IMG/VR virus record: IMGVR_UViG_3300027991_000005
Span: 1-26,809 of that record
From: a virus
Taxonomy: Duplodnaviria; Caudoviricetes
Direction: 5' to 3' (one strand)
DNA length: 26,809 bases
Shown: in pieces, positions 357 to 19,958 of the stretch
Position numbering within the stretch: the stretch's first letter is position 1
Layout: each line of letters begins with the position of its first letter
Translations under genes and position numbers: made by a program
The notes under the pieces: model-generated
Told to the model about the DNA's origin: nothing
Databases searched by the model: none
The model's input: only the letters and a program-made list of their open reading frames with translations

Positions 357-1817
357 TTATTTTGCCTCCAAGGCCTGGATGCGCGCCGTCAGTTCCTTGA
401 TACAATTGACCAAGATCGGCACCAGCATTCCCGGCGCCAGGGTTGCGATCTGTTGCTCGTCGATTTCGATGCGCCCGACCATCTCGGGGATGACCGGCTC
501 GACATCTTGCGCGACAAAACCGTAACGGGTTGTCCCGGCCTCCCGGAAAGGCCCGCCGGCGTATTCAAACGAGACCGGGGCGAGCTGCAACACCGCCTCC
601 AGCCCTCGCTCATAGGGGGCGACATTGGTCTTGTAATCGGCATCGCTGATGGTCGACCAGGAGCCGCTGTTGTTGTAAGTGCCGGCGCCGTTAAAAATCG
701 CGTAAGTCGCGCTGGCGCCACGGCTGCGGAAAATGTGCTGTTGGTTGTCGTAGTAATTTTCTCCCGTCGTGTACATCGCGATGTTCGACGTACCGCCAGT
801 ATCGTAGATAGTGCGCAGCGCGCCGCTCTGGGTACAAAAGGCAATACCGCCGACCTGATACTGCGCGGCGTTTACCACGCTGGTGCCGGTAATCGTCGGC
901 GCGGCAACAGAGCCTCCGGTGATGGCGCCGCCGATCGCTGCCGTCGCCGCGCTGATCGCGCCGCTTGCCGCCACGGTACTGGCGTTGATCGCGTTGGCCG
1001 TGACCGCGCCGTTAAGCGAGCTGGTGCCTGTCACCGCGAGCGTCGGCACCGTCAACCCGCCGGTCATCGAGCCGCCGGTAATCGGCAAGTAGGTTGCCGA
1101 CAGCGCCTGTAAGCCGGGGTTGAGAAGCTGAAACTGGGTGCCGTCCCAAACTACGTCGAGAACAGCGTATTGCTGCATCTCGCCGCCGACCAGAGGCAGG
1201 GTGTCAGTCAGCACCGGGTAGGCGCCCAGCCCCTGGATGTTGAGCGTTACTGGGCCGGTATTGTCGGCCACCAGCGGGAAGAAAGTGAAACGGTCGCCGA
1301 CCACGAGCGCGGTCGGAGCCCCGGACGTATAAGTCAGGGTTTGCGCGTTGGGCGTGCCCAGCGAGCCGATCAGCGGCAGGCTTGAAACTGTCGGGCCACC
1401 GGCCGGGGGGCCGAGATACCAATTGCCGTCGCCGCCATAAACAAACAGGGTTGGAACAGACGGCTGCAGCTCGCCGCCGCGCAATAGCGCTTCACCTCGG
1501 AACCGGATCGGCATTGCGCCGGTCCCCACGTCCAGGGTCGCGGGTCCCGTGTTCTGAGAAGTCGGGGAGATCAGAAAAGTATCACCGGCAATCGGGTCCA
1601 CAGCGCTATAGGGCACGATCAGCGCGTTTTCGGTGCCGAGCGCACCCAGATGAGCATTCGCCCGCTCGTACCAGCGGCGAAGGCCGCCCATCATCGCGCG
1701 AGCGCTGTTATTCACGCCGGAGGGCATCATCCCTTCCGGCCAGCCATCAGGCGACGATTGATTATTGCTGTCGTCAATCGGCGACCATGTGTTCGGGTCC
1801 GTCACTGTTCCACCCAC
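357..1817 (-). CDS. tail fibre with C-terminal intramolecular chaperone (peptidase S74-like)
   Basis: N-terminal WPEGMMPSGVNNSARAMM anchor; two NTGPxTL repeats; Ala/Gly/Thr-rich shaft; C-terminal SDADYKTNV...YGFVAQDVEPVIPEMV...LVNCIKEL S74 signature. Confidence 0.9.
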   Translation of the reverse strand: MGGTVTDPNTWSPIDDSNNQSSPDGWPEGMMPSGVNNSARAMMGGLRRWYERANAHLGALGTENALIVPYSAVDPIAGDTFLISPTSQNTGPATLDVGTGAMPIRFRGEALLRGGELQPSVPTLFVYGGDGNWYLGPPAGGPTVSSLPLIGSLGTPNAQTLTYTSGAPTALVVGDRFTFFPLVADNTGPVTLNIQGLGAYPVLTDTLPLVGGEMQQYAVLDVVWDGTQFQLLNPGLQALSATYLPITGGSMTGGLTVPTLAVTGTSSLNGAVTANAINASTVAASGAISAATAAIGGAITGGSVAAPTITGTSVVNAAQYQVGGIAFCTQSGALRTIYDTGGTSNIAMYTTGENYYDNQQHIFRSRGASATYAIFNGAGTYNNSGSWSTISDADYKTNVAPYERGLEAVLQLAPVSFEYAGGPFREAGTTRYGFVAQDVEPVIPEMVGRIEIDEQQIATLAPGMLVPILVNCIKELTARIQALEAK

Positions 1818-6856: not shown

Positions 6857-7849
6857 TTATTTCCAATATCGCCAGGCGTTATCGATAAACCGGAATTGCA
6901 GCCCGGCGCCCGGGCCGTAAGCGCTCGTCGGGCCATCCACCACCGCTGCCCCGCCGCTATCCTGCACGGCAAGCGATGTGACGGGGTTTTGCAACGATAT
7001 CTCCACCAGCATGTCGGTGGCGGGCTGTGGCGGCAGGCGGATCGTCAACACGGCCAAGGGACCGCCCTCGATATAAAGCCCCGGCTCGCCGGGCAGCATA
7101 ACGACAGTGGTGCCGGACGCCGGCGTGACAGCACGAAAGGCGGTGCCCGAGGGGGCTGGTGTCGGTGTGGGTGTGGGCGCCAGCGCACTCCCGCCGGAGC
7201 CGCCGCCAACCGGCTGCACAATCGTAATACCGTCCACCCGGACCTGCAGCGCGCCCGGCCAGCGAGCCTTGCGGTCGGCCTGTTCGATCGAGGCAAAAAT
7301 CGCCTCGCGGCGTTGCAGCCAGAGCGGCGCGCGTTCGTCGTGGCCGATAAACAGCTCGGCCTCGGCGAGGCTCCCAAACAGGTACGCGTCGGGATGCACG
7401 CGCAGCAGTATGTTGGTCGGGTTTTGCGCCGACAGAGCCGGCCAGGCGGCGTAATAGTTCACCGTCAGCTCGTACTCGGCGTCCGGCTGCGGGTCGAGGC
7501 GGGCAATACGGATACCTGGTTCTCCAGTGCCGACACCGAGAATGCTATAATAGCGCGGCGTGCCGGTGGTCTGCGGTATCGGTCCCGGCGGCAGATACTG
7601 CAACGGCAACGTGCCGATCGACATCTGGCGTATTTCAGTACACCCGTCCGGCAGATATACGGCGGAGGTGCCGGGCGTCGTCAGTAAGAAAGCCTGGTAT
7701 TCGTCGCCGCCGATCCGCAACCGCCGCCGCGCCTCGGCCTCGAACAGCCGGATCATATCGGGCACCGCCGGCTGCACCAGTGGATCGGCCGGGCGCGCCA
7801 GCCACGACAAGATACTGGCCTGTAATGCCGAATAACTGTTGAGAGCCAT
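6857..7849 (-). CDS. head-tail adaptor with C-terminal extra domain
   Basis: N-terminal ~200 aa (YSALQASILSWLAR...PDAYLFGSLAEA) typical of podophage adaptors; Gly/Pro-Thr linker; ~95-aa beta domain. Confidence 0.75.
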   Translation of the reverse strand: MALNSYSALQASILSWLARPADPLVQPAVPDMIRLFEAEARRRLRIGGDEYQAFLLTTPGTSAVYLPDGCTEIRQMSIGTLPLQYLPPGPIPQTTGTPRYYSILGVGTGEPGIRIARLDPQPDAEYELTVNYYAAWPALSAQNPTNILLRVHPDAYLFGSLAEAELFIGHDERAPLWLQRREAIFASIEQADRKARWPGALQVRVDGITIVQPVGGGSGGSALAPTPTPTPAPSGTAFRAVTPASGTTVVMLPGEPGLYIEGGPLAVLTIRLPPQPATDMLVEISLQNPVTSLAVQDSGGAAVVDGPTSAYGPGAGLQFRFIDNAWRYWK

Positions 7850-8276: not shown

Positions 8277-9233
8277 TTACGGTGATGTGAGATCATATAT
8301 CGCCCCCGAACTCTTCTCATTCTTAGCCGTCAAGGTATACTCGGCGAGGATCATCCGCTTTTCGGCGTCGCCGGTCTTGGCGAGCGGCACTTGCGTGAAC
8401 GGCCGCAAGTAATCCACCGACCAGTACGACCAGTTCAGGATCAGCGCGTCCCTGGTGCGCATAAAGCGGTTGGCGATGACATTCACCGTGTGGAAGTCGC
8501 CGACATACACGTCAACCGTGTTCACCAGCTTCTTCTCCATTACGTCGACTTGCTTTGTCGCGTTGCCGGTGAAAGCGCTGAACGCCTGCTTGTTGCCAGG
8601 GCCGAGCATGATGACGTCAACGTCTTCGCTAGAGTTGGTGAAGATCGACTTCAGCACCGTTTGGAACATCGCCTCGGTTATCGCGCGAGGCGTCCCGTCG
8701 ACCCGGGCGTCGGTGCCGTCCCCCGTTGGATTAGTGCCGACGTGACTGACGTTGGTGATGATCCACGACAGCACCGACGCAAGCTTGGGAGCGGTAGCCG
8801 CCGCGCCGGTGACTTTCGCCTGGTTGGAAAGCAGGATGCTCTCCATGTCGATCTTCAACTCCCGCCCGCGTTTCTGCATCTGGTAGGCCAGCTCGGTGCG
8901 TCGACCCGCCTTGCTGACCGCATCGAGCGTGCCAGAGATGATCACCTCTTTGCGGCTGATCTGGGTGCGGTTACCCAGGCGAGAGGTGACGCTCGCGGCG
9001 CTGAAGGTGGCAACATCATCGCCCTGGAACTGGGCGTTTGCGGTGTTGGCCGCTGCCAGGGAGTCAACTTGCCACTCGTGCAAGACCGCGTCGGCAGTGC
9101 CGCGCCCGGCATTGGTCATAAACGGCGTGGAAGAAGGTGACACTAAGTAGATCACGTCGGCAAGATCTTCTCTGAGACCTTGCATGCCAGGCGAGCCGGA
9201 AAAGGTGGTCGCCGTACCAGTAATGATAGCCAT
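8277..9233 (-). CDS. major capsid protein (DUF5309/SU10-type)
   Basis: 318 aa; REDLADVI, TPF, HEWQVDSL, NRTQISRK, ELKIDME, LAKTGDAEK, EYTL motifs. Confidence 0.93.
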   Translation of the reverse strand: MAIITGTATTFSGSPGMQGLREDLADVIYLVSPSSTPFMTNAGRGTADAVLHEWQVDSLAAANTANAQFQGDDVATFSAASVTSRLGNRTQISRKEVIISGTLDAVSKAGRRTELAYQMQKRGRELKIDMESILLSNQAKVTGAAATAPKLASVLSWIITNVSHVGTNPTGDGTDARVDGTPRAITEAMFQTVLKSIFTNSSEDVDVIMLGPGNKQAFSAFTGNATKQVDVMEKKLVNTVDVYVGDFHTVNVIANRFMRTRDALILNWSYWSVDYLRPFTQVPLAKTGDAEKRMILAEYTLTAKNEKSSGAIYDLTSP

Positions 9234-14787: not shown

Positions 14788-16104
14788 TTATACGATACCA
14801 AGTTGCGGATAGCGGATCGCCTTCGGCCGCCCGGCCGGGGTCTCGTACGCCACCGCCATGAGCCCCGCAGCGTCGGCCGAATGAGACGCCCAATCATGCT
14901 CGGGTCCCAGTCCAACGTCCCGCACGTCTTCGCTGCGGCGTTCGTGATACCAACCCAAAGCATCGCGCCCCGCCTCGGTCGTGTCGGCATTAAACCAGAG
15001 GCTCGGAAACAACCGCCGCAGCGCTTCGATACGCGCCCGCGCTGCGCCGCGACCCTGGTTGGGGATCACCTCCACATTGAACCCGGCCGCCCGAAAAGCA
15101 CTCTCAAACGACACGTCATAGACCCGGTCATGGGTCGCGCCGTCATGGGGGAGAAAAATCTGCGCCTTGCCCCAACCGCGCTCGCGCAGCCAATCGACAT
15201 GCACGCCAAGGCTCTGCCCGACCGCCTCGTAGTAATCGAGCACCCGCACCTCGCGACCGACAAACTGGCAAACCCACATCGCGAACGCATCGCTGCGGGC
15301 GCCCGTGCCGCCCAAATCGCAATACGCTCGCACCGCCAGCAGCGGGTCCTTTGTGACCCGGCCGATGCGGCCCTCTTGGCTCGCATCCGACAGAAATTTG
15401 GCGTAGTAGGCGCCGGCGTGGGCGATTGCATACTCGCCCTCCCAGATGTGCGGGTACTGCTCCGGCCGCTTCGCCTCGTCCTCGCGGCGGATCTGATCGA
15501 GGGTCGACGGGAACCAGGCGTTGTCGCGCCAGTTCAGTTCGACAATCTTGCTGTTTTCCGGCGGGTTGACGCGAAATCGCTGGTTGGTGGCGCTGGCGCG
15601 CCGCTCGGGGTTCCAGGTCACCCAGATTTCCGCATTCTCCTCGCGGACCGTGGGTATCGCCTTCTGCCACGCCATCTCCGATACCGGCTCGGCCTCGTCG
15701 ACCCACAGAAGGCGTATCCTGGCGGTCGATTTGACGCTCTCGATGTTTCTTCTAAGGCCGACAAAAGAGAAATCGATCCGCCCGTCGCGGGTCCGAATGA
15801 ATTTCTCGCCGATCTCGTAGTTAGCGGCCAGCCACGGCTCGGTCTCGATCGCCTGCTTGACCTCCGCCATGCTGCTTTCGTCGAGGCTGTTCTGGAACTC
15901 GCGGCCGCAGACAATAACCCCGCTTTCCTTCGCCAGGGCACAGCGCAACCCGTGCACCGCCGCCATCTTGGCAAAGGATCTGCTCTTTGCGCTACCGCGA
16001 CCGCCGTATGCCCCACGATACAACGCCTCGCCACTGAACACCGGGATCAGTTTCTCCGGCAGTTCGATCCGCCCCGCGGTCATATTACGCTCACGGACAG
16101 ACAT
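14788..16104 (-). CDS. terL: terminase large subunit (PBSX-type ATPase + RNase H-like nuclease)
   Basis: Walker A GGRGSAKS, Walker B LLWVDEA, TWNP coupling motif, nuclease DLG, PHD, HSADA; alternative ATG at 16083. Confidence 0.95.
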   Translation of the reverse strand: MSVRERNMTAGRIELPEKLIPVFSGEALYRGAYGGRGSAKSRSFAKMAAVHGLRCALAKESGVIVCGREFQNSLDESSMAEVKQAIETEPWLAANYEIGEKFIRTRDGRIDFSFVGLRRNIESVKSTARIRLLWVDEAEPVSEMAWQKAIPTVREENAEIWVTWNPERRASATNQRFRVNPPENSKIVELNWRDNAWFPSTLDQIRREDEAKRPEQYPHIWEGEYAIAHAGAYYAKFLSDASQEGRIGRVTKDPLLAVRAYCDLGGTGARSDAFAMWVCQFVGREVRVLDYYEAVGQSLGVHVDWLRERGWGKAQIFLPHDGATHDRVYDVSFESAFRAAGFNVEVIPNQGRGAARARIEALRRLFPSLWFNADTTEAGRDALGWYHERRSEDVRDVGLGPEHDWASHSADAAGLMAVAYETPAGRPKAIRYPQLGIV

Positions 16105-16918
16105 TCACCACGCCGGCGTTATTCCACAGCGTGCCGGGCGCCGCCCCGGAACAAGACCCCAGCATTACCGGCAGGACAATCCCGGCCGCCTTCACCGTGC
16201 CATCACGCGACACCGCGAAATACTCCGGCGATCCCGGTGTCCCCACCCAAATCGCCCGGTCGTTCGGCGCCGTCCCGATCGCCGCCGCCTTGATGCACAG
16301 CCCGCAGTGCAACCGCGCTGCCGAACCGGCCGCCTCGCCAAAATAAATGCCTCCCGTCACGTTCTGCGTGCCGGCCGGCATCAAGTGCATGATGTATTTC
16401 GATGTCGTCGTGTCGTGGTTGGGCTGATCCAACGCTGCAAAGTTCTCCAGTGACATCTCGGCCGCCAGCGCGTACCCGTCCGACCCAGCGTCCACCCGGC
16501 CGCTGGAAAATAACCCCCAGGCCCGACCCTGCATGTTCGGCGTCATGACCCTGCCCCGCGTGTCCAACCCTACCATGTCAAGGTTCCGCGCCCCGGACGA
16601 GGGATCGCGCGTGTATGTCTGGATCAACAGCCCAGCCCGCTCATACCCCGGCCCCGTCGTCGTCGTCGTCTCCGCACCACCCTGGATGTTTAGGATAAAC
16701 CGATTGCCGCCAGCCCCTGTCGGGTCTTCCAGATTGGCATTGTACCCGCTGTAACTACTGCCCCAGGCGCCCGGATCCGGCAGGATAGAGCCCGGCGGTA
16801 TCGACTTGATGCCCGACACTACCGGGTTCGTCACATTCGACATATTCTGGTACATGTCAGCCACAGCGATAGTGCTGACCAGCGCCAGCACCGTCGCAGC
16901 AGGAAAAACCCGGCGCAT
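16091..16918 (-). CDS. signal-peptide-bearing fibre-like protein
   Basis: ATG at 16918 (TGATG overlap); MRRVFPAATVLALVSTIAVA|D; beta-rich Gly/Ala body; fibre-type C-terminus PGTLWNNAGVVNV. Confidence 0.7.
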   Translation of the reverse strand: MRRVFPAATVLALVSTIAVADMYQNMSNVTNPVVSGIKSIPPGSILPDPGAWGSSYSGYNANLEDPTGAGGNRFILNIQGGAETTTTTGPGYERAGLLIQTYTRDPSSGARNLDMVGLDTRGRVMTPNMQGRAWGLFSSGRVDAGSDGYALAAEMSLENFAALDQPNHDTTTSKYIMHLMPAGTQNVTGGIYFGEAAGSAARLHCGLCIKAAAIGTAPNDRAIWVGTPGSPEYFAVSRDGTVKAAGIVLPVMLGSCSGAAPGTLWNNAGVVNVCP

Positions 16919-17820
16919 CAAAACCCCCAGTACTGGCGCTGATTGCTGGTGAGTGCCGCGCGCTCAGCCGGGGTCAGTGCGTAATTGTCCCAGATGATCA
17001 ACTCAGCCTCGCGGATACTCCCCACACTCGGCCCGATATTGCCGTAAACCCCCGCCGCCGCGCTGCCAGTCAATGTCCCCGTCGTCGCCGTCCCGTCGAG
17101 AAAAGCATAGCTCGACGCACCGTTCAGCGTGCCCTGAAAGGCGTGCCATGCCGCATCCGCCGCCGCCACCGCCAGGCTGCCACCCCCGCCAGTCGCAGCG
17201 TCCCAGACCCACGTGTTCGCCGCGCCGCCGGTATACAGCCGGTTGACATCGCCATTCAGCAACGCAATCCGCCCCACACCCGTCGTCCCGGCGTTGCGGT
17301 TCGCCACCGCCGACAGAGACTGCACACCCGTCGCCGGCGTCACGCTGGCCGACTGCAACGTCATGCCGCTGTTACTAAGCTGCAGGCACGGCTGGCCGCC
17401 GAGGCAATTCGCCACAAAATCCGGCTGCCCAGGCCCAAAGCCCTGCGCAATGTGGCGCGCGTTGCCGCTCTGATCATACCAGGTGTCCATCGTGCAGGTG
17501 GTGGCACTGCAGAACGCACTCGCCGCCGCCACATCCAACGGCGCCCCGGTAAAGCCGGTGAAGCCCAGAAAATTGATGTTCTGGGTGGCGTTGTCGCTGG
17601 CCCGCCGCAATTTGATGCCGGGGCCAGCGTAGCCGCTCTTCAGCTTGCGAAAACTGTACGCACCCGCCGGGCTCGCAAAAGACCCACCGCCATCCAACGG
17701 CGCAATCGCCCCCGCCAGCCGGTGCCCAGCACGCAGCACGTTTGGCCCGGCGTGCATCCGCGCCACCACCGGCGATGCCGCCAGCAGCAGCACCGCCGCA
17801 GTTAGGCCAGCAACCCTCAT
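16918..17820 (-). CDS. signal-peptide-bearing concanavalin/LamG-like protein (GH54 arabinofuranosidase-B catalytic-domain-like N-terminal motifs)
   Basis: MRVAGLTAAVLLLAASPVVA|R; AYSFRKL...YAGP...RRASDNAT...FC...C...WYDQSGN and ELIIWDNYALT. Confidence 0.75.
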   Translation of the reverse strand: MRVAGLTAAVLLLAASPVVARMHAGPNVLRAGHRLAGAIAPLDGGGSFASPAGAYSFRKLKSGYAGPGIKLRRASDNATQNINFLGFTGFTGAPLDVAAASAFCSATTCTMDTWYDQSGNARHIAQGFGPGQPDFVANCLGGQPCLQLSNSGMTLQSASVTPATGVQSLSAVANRNAGTTGVGRIALLNGDVNRLYTGGAANTWVWDAATGGGGSLAVAAADAAWHAFQGTLNGASSYAFLDGTATTGTLTGSAAAGVYGNIGPSVGSIREAELIIWDNYALTPAERAALTSNQRQYWGF

Positions 17821-18188
17821 AACCCGTCGCCCGGCGTTATATAAAGCGTCGCCGCCGTGCCGCCGGTGATCCCCGCAATGTACTGCTGCGCACAGCCCAA
17901 CACTTCAACCGTGCCCGGCGCAATCGGCAGGCTCGCGGTCGTCGCGACAGCCGTGACATCGCCGCAAACGATGAACACCGCCACCGTGCCGCTATTATAA
18001 AGACGCATAGCCTTGCTGTTCGGCCCCGTCTGCACCTGCACCCGCGAGGTCGTCCCGGTCGCCGCCAGGCTCACCGTCGCACCCCCCGCCAGAAAAGGAA
18101 CCTGCGCGCGTGCGCACATATATATAGATGACAAGATTAAAACGAGCGCGGCGGGCGCTAGAACACGCAAAGGTTGTGGCGATCTCAT
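17817..18188 (-). CDS. signal-peptide-bearing small beta-sandwich protein (123 aa)
   Basis: Start reassigned to ATG at 18188 (GAGG RBS); ...AALVLILSSIYMCARA|Q; mature part RLYNSG...PIAPGTVEV...LYITPGDG. Confidence 0.7.
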   Translation of the reverse strand: MRSPQPLRVLAPAALVLILSSIYMCARAQVPFLAGGATVSLAATGTTSRVQVQTGPNSKAMRLYNSGTVAVFIVCGDVTAVATTASLPIAPGTVEVLGCAQQYIAGITGGTAATLYITPGDGL

Positions 18189-18227
18189 GCCGGGCCTCAA
18201 AAAAAAATATTCGGGAGGGTGCGGCTG

Positions 18228-18285
18228 ACACGGATGCGGTGCGCCCCCAACACGGATGCGGTGCGCCCCCAACACGGATGCGGTG
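18228..18285. repeat. 22-bp tandem repeat, ~2.6 copies
   Basis: ACACGGATGCGGTGCGCCCCCA at 18228 and 18250, partial copy at 18272. Confidence 0.9.
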
Positions 18286-18286
18286 T

Positions 18287-18476
18287 GACCAGACGGCTAC
18301 AGCGCATGAAGCGAGAGACGAGATGGGGGGCCGTCAGCCAGCCGGATGGAACCATCGTCTTCGGGGGTGGCCCCAGGGGGCCTAGTCCAGGTGAGCCGCG
18401 CTGGCTGCTGATTGTCCGGGAGGTAGGCTCCTAACCAGACCAGACGGCTACAGCGCATGAAGCGAGAGACGAGATG
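18287..18476. repeat. 39-bp perfect direct repeat pair
   Basis: GACCAGACGGCTACAGCGCATGAAGCGAGAGACGAGATG at 18287-18325 and 18438-18476. Confidence 0.9.
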
Positions 18477-18705
18477 TCTCGTTAGGATCTAGACCCGCGC
18501 CGCACTGCGTCTCTTAACCATCGTTTCGACCCTGATGAGACGCAAATAACGTCTCATCGTCTCGTATGTCTGGGGTTCACCCAAGCGAGACTGGGGCGAG
18601 TTCTAGCTGCAAAACAAACAGCGCGTGATCGGTGCGTGAGAAAGCCAGACAACCCCTCAGTTTCCGGCTTTGGCAACAAACCCAAGCTAGAACTCGCCCC
18701 AGAGG

Positions 18706-19233
18706 TTACTCGGTTTCCGGCTTTGGCAAACGACGCGTGATCGGTGCGACCGGAATCAACTCGATGCGCGTCACGATCGGCGCGTCGGGGTTGCCGACTA
18801 GCTCTTGAGTGACTTTGTCGCCGTACTGTTTCGGCAGCAGCTTGGAAAGCATCCACTTGCGGCTGTCGACCTGTAGCCGCTGTTTCTGAACTAAAGCATT
18901 GTCCGCTTCACCATTAAGACCAATACACGACGCATCACTAATGGCGATTACTTCATCCGCCAAGCGTTCAAGGCCGATAGCTTTCGCGCGCGCGTATCTT
19001 TCCGCAAACGGTGTCGCGCCATTTCTAACCGGTTCTCTCTCAATAGCCCACGATCGCACTGTACTCGCAGGTGGCAGATGCACCTCGCGACAGATATCTT
19101 CGAGCCGTTCGCCGGCAGCCAGCCTGTCGAGTATTTCCCCGGCTATTTCTTCCGAGAACGTCCACTGCCGGCCGCGACTGCGTTTGGGTGGCGGGTCGAT
19201 CGCGTCGGCGATACGACGAAGTTCACGCTGCAA
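18706..19233 (-). CDS. terS: terminase small subunit (Sf6-like)
   Basis: EILDRLAAGERLEDIC...PPASTVRSW HTH, YARAK, ADEVIAISD, RLQVDSRKWMLSKLLPKQYGDK; TTG start uncertain. Confidence 0.9.
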   Translation of the reverse strand: MQRELRRIADAIDPPPKRSRGRQWTFSEEIAGEILDRLAAGERLEDICREVHLPPASTVRSWAIEREPVRNGATPFAERYARAKAIGLERLADEVIAISDASCIGLNGEADNALVQKQRLQVDSRKWMLSKLLPKQYGDKVTQELVGNPDAPIVTRIELIPVAPITRRLPKPETE

Positions 19234-19345
19234 GGTCAGCGTCCCGCTCCCCCTCGCCCGCGCGCGCGAGCGCGCACAATTCCTTTAGCAGCGCGATAAT
19301 GGCATCGAGCTTGGCGAGCATGGCCTCGACGTCACCGTCGCGCAT
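19223..19345 (-). CDS. small hypothetical protein (40 aa)
   Basis: Hand translation MRDGDVEAMLAKLDAIIALLKELCALARAGEGERDADLAA*; overlaps the terS start. Confidence 0.45.
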   Translation of the reverse strand: MRDGDVEAMLAKLDAIIALLKELCALARAGEGERDADLAA

Positions 19346-19388
19346 CAGGGCGCCCGCACATAAATCGACATAGCGTAGCTTTTTACCC

Positions 19389-19417
19389 TTGCAACTCGAC
19401 GTGGCGTCAACTATCTT
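19389..19417 (+). promoter_or_regulatory. sigma70-type promoter with an inverted repeat in the spacer
   Basis: TTGCAA-17 bp-TATCTT; spacer contains GACG-TGG-CGTC; lies upstream of the plus-strand gene pair. Confidence 0.65.
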
Positions 19418-19461
19418 CTGTCTTGTCAGACAGACACACCCCGAACCCGGAGCACATCAAA

Positions 19462-19773
19462 ATGACCACGTACACACTCGTCATTGCAACATCACCCGGC
19501 ACAACCCTGCTGATCGGCTCCCCGGTAGACGGCGACCAGGCCGGCGTTAACCAGGCGATCGCCGGGCACCGCGAGATGGAACGCGAAGATCACATGGGCT
19601 ACGACGATGACGACGAGCATCGCGACACCGCAGGCGCCGATATTGAATTGATCCCCGGCTGCACCCTGACCGATGACGAGCCGGAAGACGAAGACCGCAT
19701 CGTGTGGCAGGGCCACGAGTACGGCTGGCTGATCGACGAAGACGGCAACCCCTACAAATACGCAATTCGATGA
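19462..19773 (+). CDS. acidic hypothetical protein (103 aa)
   Basis: ATG at 19462 with GGAG RBS; very Asp/Glu-rich. Confidence 0.75.
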   Translation: MTTYTLVIATSPGTTLLIGSPVDGDQAGVNQAIAGHREMEREDHMGYDDDDEHRDTAGADIELIPGCTLTDDEPEDEDRIVWQGHEYGWLIDEDGNPYKYAIR

Positions 19774-19958
19774 CCGGCCCCGAACTCCGCACCGCCCTCA
19801 AATCCCTCAGCCTCCGTCAGACTACACTGGCGGAGGTTTTGGGCGTGTCGCCGAACACCGTTCACCGCTGGGTGAAAGGCGATATGGCAGTGCCACGATA
19901 CGCGAGCGCATATGTGGCGCTGCTGCAACTGTTAGCTACCCGCAATCCCGGTGAATAA
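19770..19958 (+). CDS. XRE/Cro-type HTH protein (62 aa)
   Basis: ATGA-coupled start; MTGPELRTALKSLSLRQTTLAEVLGVSPNTVHRWVKG. Confidence 0.85.
   Translation: MTGPELRTALKSLSLRQTTLAEVLGVSPNTVHRWVKGDMAVPRYASAYVALLQLLATRNPGE

Follow-up and report, generated by a model that had tools for sequence, protein, structure and literature searches.

Sec-type leaders and paired cysteines in a three-gene phage cassette point to a virion appendage that may fold in the periplasm

We analyzed three consecutive genes, here called gA, gB, and gC, in a 26,809-nucleotide (nt) stretch of tailed-phage DNA (Caudoviricetes; IMG/VR record IMGVR_UViG_3300027991_000005, positions 1 to 26,809), the whole of which is referred to as the window. 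The three genes and the terminase genes on either side of them lie on the minus strand. gA (17817..18188) encodes 123 residues, of which 28 form a Sec-type leader ending ARA|Q and 95 an eight-stranded jelly roll, and is a candidate spike base. gB (16918..17820) encodes 300 residues with a 20-residue leader (VVA|R), an N-terminal peptide, and a ConA/LamG domain resembling the GH54 catalytic domain, and is a candidate lectin head. gC (16091..16921) starts at 16918 or 16921 and accordingly has 275 or 276 residues, with a 20- or 21-residue leader (AVA|D) and a rare body; it is a candidate fibre or tailspike. As an earlier note on this DNA had described, the three genes follow one another with overlapping stop and start codons, gA and gB sharing 4 nt, and gB and gC sharing 1 nt if gC starts at 16918 and 4 nt if it starts at 16921. 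The further overlap that the note had placed between gC and the terminase large-subunit gene (terL; 14788..16104; PF04466) held up less well, as its 14 nt require the ATG at 16104. The terL proteins of five close relatives align from residue 8 only, and in the loci L003, L005, and L007 terL begins there, so that the likelier start is 16083, 7 nt past the gC stop. On the other side, gA lies 517 nt downstream of the terminase small-subunit gene (terS; 18706..19233; PF20901, phrog_1482), with a conserved non-coding region (18189..18705) between them.

Leaders were identified with a rule of our own, requiring a basic n-region, a hydrophobic h-region, and small residues at −3/−1. The rule flags exactly gA, gB, and gC among the 26 genes of the window, in agreement with the Sec-type leaders reported previously. 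For comparison, we collected 79 gA homologs (clustered at 90%) and the best 80 of 350 matching stretches of viral contigs; removal of nine shorter duplicates from 91 loci left 82, near-copies still among them. With nearby alternative starts allowed, the rule flagged 67 of 80 gA genes, 61 of 65 gB genes, and 52 of 55 genes in the position of gC (the third slot), whereas at the same loci none of the 189 core phage genes and 52 of the 937 others were flagged. Five of the 13 unflagged gA genes have leaders that are visible or cut by the contig end, and eight are truly leaderless. A 72-row gA alignment (A1) was then built from the query and the homologs, leaving out a near-copy of the query (P0001), five N-terminally truncated records, the over-long P0065, and the leaderless P0074. 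Identity in this alignment is 30% in the leader versus 63% in the mature part. At the predicted cleavage site, Ala occupies −1 in 60 sequences and Gln occupies +1 in 65; Ala is likewise found at −1 in 36 of 38 gB and 45 of 46 third-slot proteins. To judge from these alignments, the leaders are selected for pattern rather than sequence. The earlier note had also considered that the true starts might lie downstream of the hydrophobic segments. For gA, a GAGG lies 6 nt upstream of the ATG at 18188, and this ATG is invariant in all eight sequences aligned (the window and seven loci), which makes it unlikely that translation begins further downstream and yields a cytoplasmic product.

The even Cys counts noted previously for the mature parts (2, 4, and 4) were confirmed, with Cys at positions 75 and 99 of gA, 104, 109, 139, and 145 of gB, and 206, 209, 257, and 275 of gC. 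Exactly two Cys are present in 69 of 72 mature gA sequences. Even numbers occur in all 38 single-domain gB rows (alignment A3, taken from 65) and in all 45 complete third-slot proteins, as against 92 of 166 unflagged controls, and a second search returned even numbers in 77 of 77 motif-bearing gB homologs. In gB, the pairs 104/109 and 139/145 are invariant. Across the 38 rows, Cys185 and Cys269 occur together in 36 and are both missing in two (the window among these), never singly, while Cys87 and Cys93 are both present in five and both missing in 33. Leader and Cys pair also co-occur: in a set of 20 gA rows, both Cys are found in 11 of 11 leader-bearing proteins and in none of nine leaderless ones (seven have neither and two have one). 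These nine start at the predicted mature N-terminus. A leaderless gC homolog, P0081 (E 2e-12), has a single Cys, and leaderless relatives of gA, gB, and gC are without most or all of the Cys pairs. Leader and disulfide thus travel together, as periplasmic folding predicts.

Disulfide folding in the periplasm is established Sec/Dsb biology. Because gA, gB, and gC combine secretion-type leaders with paired cysteines, all three likely fold outside the cytoplasm; their Sec export and disulfide folding is a strongly supported prediction, and the case for leader cleavage and disulfide formation is strong. We consider it very improbable that the leaders instead stay in place as membrane anchors, or are plain helices at the N-termini of virion proteins that remain in the cytoplasm, with the Cys parity incidental. 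Processing of the three proteins is a prediction from sequence, which would suit such an explanation, but Ala at −3/−1 is conserved across divergent leaders of ~20 residues, the Cys pairs co-vary, and relatives that lack the leader begin exactly where the mature protein is predicted to begin, without the pairs.

The small β-sandwich reported for gA is predicted in its structural model (mean predicted local distance difference test score, pLDDT, 89.9) as a leader helix followed by eight strands in a jelly roll. Comparison with the Protein Data Bank in VIA gave PirA (Z 8.0), Ena1 (Z 7.8), and a PR772 chain that we take to be the penton (Z 6.8). The Ena1 score would fit a relation to Ena-type pili, whose jelly-roll subunits have an N-terminal connector and disulfides between subunits, but the root-mean-square deviation (rmsd) is 9.4, the leader helix is included in the alignment, and gA has one conserved Cys pair only. 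Foldseek found no solved structure at E ≤ 1e-3 with the gA model (Ena1C was first, E 4e-3), and hidden Markov model (HMM) searches of solved structures with the gA alignments gave nothing below E 0.03. Among predicted viral structures, gA has 64 matches at E ≤ 1e-3, mostly to uncharacterized tailed-phage proteins of 85–120 residues, and in Atlas it is similar at 0.95 to viral clusters of 94–102 residues. At two loci (L087 and L088), a leaderless gA sits directly between a 393-residue gene in the capsid slot and a protein of 614–641 residues. On the gA tree (64 rows, 96 columns), five architecture groups require four label changes (shuffled mean 25.7), and the leaderless forms fall on one side of an unstarred branch (87/76); the exported form may have a single origin. 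Leaderless gA also matched ORF9 of Ralstonia phage RSK1, but too weakly (E 0.4) to be counted.

The gB model has a pLDDT of 85, with residues 18–36 mostly below 50; the N-terminal peptide (RMHAGP...GHRL) is conserved and of low model confidence. The ConA/GH54-like domain proposed earlier is borne out by the model, which superposes on the GH54 structure 1wd3 with Z 24.3 and rmsd 2.7 over 247 aligned residues. It also matches a tailspike chain of cyanopodophage Pan3 (9vyh_q) with Z 16.1 and rmsd 4.8 over 210 of 269 residues. The sequence scores 46 bits against PF09206 (cut-off 25), covering only profile positions 15–86 of 315, and matches phrog_10356 ("virion structural protein"). The gB domain occurs in 17 cultured-phage records, several of which are annotated as virion structural or minor tail protein. 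With the GH54 α-L-arabinofuranosidase B (PF09206; 1wd3), gB has in common the whole-domain fold, an N-terminal Cys-x4-Cys motif, and export, predicted in the case of gB. Unlike that enzyme, gB is phage-encoded behind an anchor peptide and has neither a CBM42 nor conserved acids at the rough catalytic positions. The catalytic acids, which we take to be Glu221 and Asp297 of the Aspergillus enzyme, fall near gB residues 207 and 269 by proportional mapping, and the sequence alignments end before both. Across 92 gB sequences, no column in 117–221 or 246–272 reaches at least 50% Asp/Glu, and an invariant Glu273 lies near the second position. With no acid conserved in the stretches where this rough mapping places the catalytic pair, the balance for gB tips toward a lectin rather than an enzyme.

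The N-terminal peptide is retained where the rest of the protein is not. An xM(H/K)AGP peptide and a leader are kept in the gene after gA despite other bodies at L012, L014, L039, and L085. Four of 120 listed gB homologs, known as proteins alone and apart from their gene neighborhoods, carry a Leu-Gly/Leu-x repeat at the mature N-terminus: the leader-bearing P0090, P0153, and P0187 and the leaderless P0201. A fifth pattern match, P0082, was set aside as an apparently N-terminally truncated record. P0145 (382 residues), in which a leader and an extra Cys-containing N-terminal domain precede the gB domain, found no support as a gA–gB fusion (hhalign probability 0.9%).

Proteins of the third slot follow a related design, with a fixed motif of ~18 residues past the cleavage site and exchangeable bodies. 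Of the 34 scanned, 12 match pectate-lyase-like or β-helix profiles, five of them above the curated cut-off. gC is a rare, short member that carries the N-terminal motif DM[YF][PQ][DN]xxNA and a C-terminal Cys-capped motif; both are common to L007, L010, L048, and L073. For the fibre-type character that the note had seen in gC, the evidence consists of these end motifs, the leaderless homolog P0081, and weak leads. Searches with gC gave nothing in Pfam, PHROG, or cultured phages and turned up only near-identical copies in viral contigs; an Atlas lead to phage hyaluronidase fibres reaches just 0.83–0.85. P22-type β-helix tailspikes similarly join a conserved N-terminal anchor to exchangeable bodies, which in the third slot are pectate-lyase-like. 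They differ in that the third-slot anchor is a short peptide behind a Sec leader and mature Cys numbers are always even; gC itself is without a Pfam match.

The closest architectural parallel is the head spike of the Rhodobacter capsulatus gene transfer agent (RcGTA), whose proteins are cytoplasmic. There, a jelly-roll base pentamer on capsid pentamers grips residues 2–10 of the fibre, a Leu-Gly repeat (PMC7296036), and both genes, encoding base Rcc01079/GhsA and fibre Rcc01080/GhsB, aid adsorption (PMC5026251). Both systems pair a small jelly-roll gene with a following gene for a glycan-binding protein that has a short N-terminal anchor peptide, and some gB relatives hold the same kind of Leu-Gly repeat in the anchor slot. 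The window gB, by contrast, has RMHAGP...GHRL in this place, and the cassette adds a variable fibre together with Sec leaders and disulfide pairs on all parts. gA has no detectable sequence or fold link to the RcGTA base: eight strands are predicted against the six reported there, and the base was neither among the listed gA fold matches nor significant in the HMM searches. Taken with the anchor peptides, the comparison points to gA/gB as a base-and-anchor appendage.

Other virion proteins offer partial parallels. The Pan3 tailspike chain (269 residues) has a ConA-like fold and similar size to gB and is a virion appendage, and ConA-type minor tail proteins of Gordonia phages and Synechococcus phage S-CBS4 give partial matches to gB of 29–41%. 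Unlike gB, these proteins sit in tail modules, and a gA or gC partner was not detected in any cultured phage. Cellulophaga phage phi18:3 (KC821620) encodes three consecutive proteins, gp085–087, that are structural by tandem mass spectrometry (MS/MS) in the GenBank annotation and bear leaders by our rule (3 of 14 tested), resembling the cassette as a run of leader-bearing, structural-annotated proteins in a tailed phage. Leader-bearing proteins are therefore apparently recoverable with tailed virions. phi18:3 differs in its Bacteroidota host and in Cys numbers of 0, 1, and 3; it was not matched by gA or gC in phage searches and is not among the 17 records with the gB domain.

The earlier note had presented the cassette as an insertion between terS and terL. 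This describes the window and does not hold as a rule: of 72 loci, 22 have the cassette between terS and terL, 10 (HK97-like siphophages) between protease-capsid and portal, five between terL and portal, and four in the tail-tip region. Both SU10-like podophages and HK97-like siphophages carry it, within blocks of packaging, head, or tail-tip genes. At 64 of the 72 leader-type loci, gA is directly followed by gB, and at 47 of these 64 a third-slot gene comes next, always with a spacing of −4 to +1 nt. Across the homologs, whose survey the note had proposed, the leaders are mostly retained and the order gA–gB–third slot recurs. The window itself is a 26.8-kb partial phage record. Its integrase and primase/helicase are followed by terS and terL, the SU10-type portal, the scaffold, the SU10-type major capsid (8277–9233) and adaptor, and a leaderless tail fibre with an S74 chaperone domain (357..1817, minus strand). 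From this gene content, it probably derives from a temperate SU10-like podophage. The segment 15500–18800 was found in 24 DNA runs from 23 studies of soil, rhizosphere, or root metagenomes (one possibly the source), with no RNA run among the holders listed.

These surroundings bear on an alternative in which the proteins serve the host surface or the medium, as an exported adhesin or receptor mask of the lysogen or of late infection that would alter attachment or block superinfection, possibly with gB and gC at the tip of an Ena-like, disulfide-linked filament of gA. Leader-bearing proteins normally end up exported, the integrase indicates a temperate phage, PEP-CTERM surface-protein genes flank the cassette in seven loci, different capsid families have the cassette in common, and Ena proteins rank second in VIA and first in Foldseek at the values given above. 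We nevertheless judge this role unlikely. The cassette is co-oriented and tightly spaced within late virion blocks, and no sigma-70-like promoter of its own was found within 15800–19500. Inspection of gA, gB, and gC made no membrane anchor, lipobox, or sorting signal evident; leaderless relatives occupy virion slots; and one Cys pair per gA chain fits an internal bond. The cassette is also nearly absent from bacterial genomes: 185,579 species genomes gave one leader-type match, on an 8-kb contig of a metagenome-assembled genome (a Steroidobacteraceae bin) that starts inside gA and may be a mis-binned phage contig. Plasmids gave no match to the N-terminal part of gB.

The enzymatic flavor of some of the folds raises another possibility, that the products are soluble aids to lysis or escape: periplasmic glycan-binding and depolymerase proteins freed at lysis, which clear capsule or biofilm matrix and are never fixed to particles. 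The pectate-lyase-like or β-helix matches in 12 of 34 third-slot proteins, an exported cassette neighbor that matches PF14307, a lysozyme gene near the cassette in four loci, and the glycosidase-family fold of gB (Z 24.3 to 1wd3) would all suit this role. It is quite unlikely in our estimate, as it does not account for N-terminal peptides that are non-catalytic yet strictly conserved while the bodies behind them vary, or for the constant partner gA, and gB has no conserved acid in the two intervals scanned across 92 sequences.

Several features around the cassette deserve mention in their own right. The non-coding region 18189–18705 is largely conserved in seven relatives, even where terS differs (56% identity), and contains three copies of a 22-nt tandem repeat (copy number varies), a directly repeated 39-nt sequence, and a run of T ahead of the ribosome-binding site of gA; it could be a packaging site or a late leader RNA. 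At 18591–18748, the terS 3′ end is duplicated (21- to 22-nt repeats) and there is an 18-nt perfect inverted repeat (18591–18608/18685–18702); by its sequence this looks like a local rearrangement and is not present in the seven aligned relatives. Upstream of terS, an acidic 116-residue open reading frame and an XRE-type helix-turn-helix gene (19423–19958, plus strand) run against the late direction. The PEP-CTERM gene adjoins or lies near the cassette in L017, L018, L019, L020, L022, L023, and L040; its product (e.g., L022:380–1051) has a leader and four Cys, and at loci with both terL and portal the gene lies between them. The lysozyme gene is near the cassette in L017, L018, L042, and L066. 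Extended cassettes with extra leader-bearing genes occur in L037, L060, L061, L069, and L070 (e.g., L069:16650–17861), and the extras include QQ[VI]P-type proteins and a 400-residue PF14307 WbsX-like protein, the latter with leaders that begin with an RR motif and are possibly Tat-type. The SU10 adaptor of the window (6857–7849) has a C-terminal extension, residues about 238–330, that recurs as a separate or fused domain beside the cassette in many relatives, siphophages included. In L031, L036, and L056, terL has long insertions after its N-terminal motif (695–1029 residues), probably inteins or homing endonucleases, and L003 has a 305-residue transposase-like gene after terL.

On balance, we favor a head-spike-like adhesin that would fold in the periplasm and be added to virions at lysis, virion binding being a prediction. 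The cassette would be transcribed late, together with the packaging genes, terL included. gA, gB, and gC would be exported by Sec, their leaders cleaved and disulfides formed, and the products stored in the periplasm. Once the inner membrane is breached, at or after lysis, oligomeric gA would dock on the finished particle, probably at head vertices, and particle-bound gA would capture gB and gC, gripping the conserved peptides at their mature N-termini. The finished appendage would bind host surface polysaccharide reversibly. Of this scheme, the leaders, the paired cysteines, the linkage of the genes, and their place among virion genes are seen in the sequence, and the folds of gA and gB are predicted by models; the remainder is proposed. 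Our confidence is moderate for oligomeric gA on the particle and the capture of gB and gC via their N-terminal peptides, and weak for head rather than tail placement, because the cassette lies in the tail-tip region in four of 72 loci. A complex prediction with four gA copies and mature gB (score 0.01, mark 0.32) provided no evidence either way.

The earlier note had left virion decoration and masking of the host surface side by side. The evidence leans to decoration because of the virion-block position, the swappable anchor slot, the gA tree tracking head type, and the cultured-phage precedent, although the PEP-CTERM neighbors leave some probability to a host-surface role. Several points weigh against a virion appendage. 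The cassette family is known from sequence, and our leader test is a heuristic of our own rather than SignalP. Neither sequence nor fold searches with gA gave a significant match to a solved spike base; the gA tree was built from 96 columns, and labels cluster through relatedness in any case. With phi18:3 the comparison is one of analogy, its proteins being Cys-poor and their MS/MS label coming from GenBank. Mature gA is ~63% identical across SU10-like and HK97-like capsid families while the cassette position varies, and with gA common to different capsid families, tight capsid binding fits less well. A PEP-CTERM gene, indicative of host-surface sorting, is near the cassette in seven loci, and the phage retains an ordinary cytoplasmic tail fibre. 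Together with the lysozyme neighbors, the crossing of capsid families, the PEP-CTERM genes, and the retained fibre keep the host-surface and lysis-aid alternatives alive.

Particle assembly in tailed phages is generally placed in the reducing cytoplasm. In searches of the open-access literature, judged by listings and the openings of abstracts, we found no description of exported or periplasm-folded tailed-phage virion parts, and the cassette would be a head-spike-like module with a route for which these searches gave no precedent. More tentatively, and with the case close to evenly poised, it might represent an extracytoplasmic branch of tailed-phage morphogenesis, in which an ancestral cytoplasmic base-plus-fibre spike gained Sec leaders and disulfides on all its parts, is stored in the periplasm, and snaps on after the inner membrane opens. 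One exported kit would then serve podophages as well as siphophages, and whatever compatible particles a lysate contains might be decorated with it. The family is apt for testing, as it offers leader-bearing and leaderless versions of all three parts, a 95-residue gA, and short anchor peptides. If the proposal is true, a final assembly step would take place in the periplasm or the lysate, phage adsorption would depend on the host Sec and Dsb systems, and many phage proteins now regarded as "secreted morons" or annotated as arabinofuranosidases would be receptor-binding gear.

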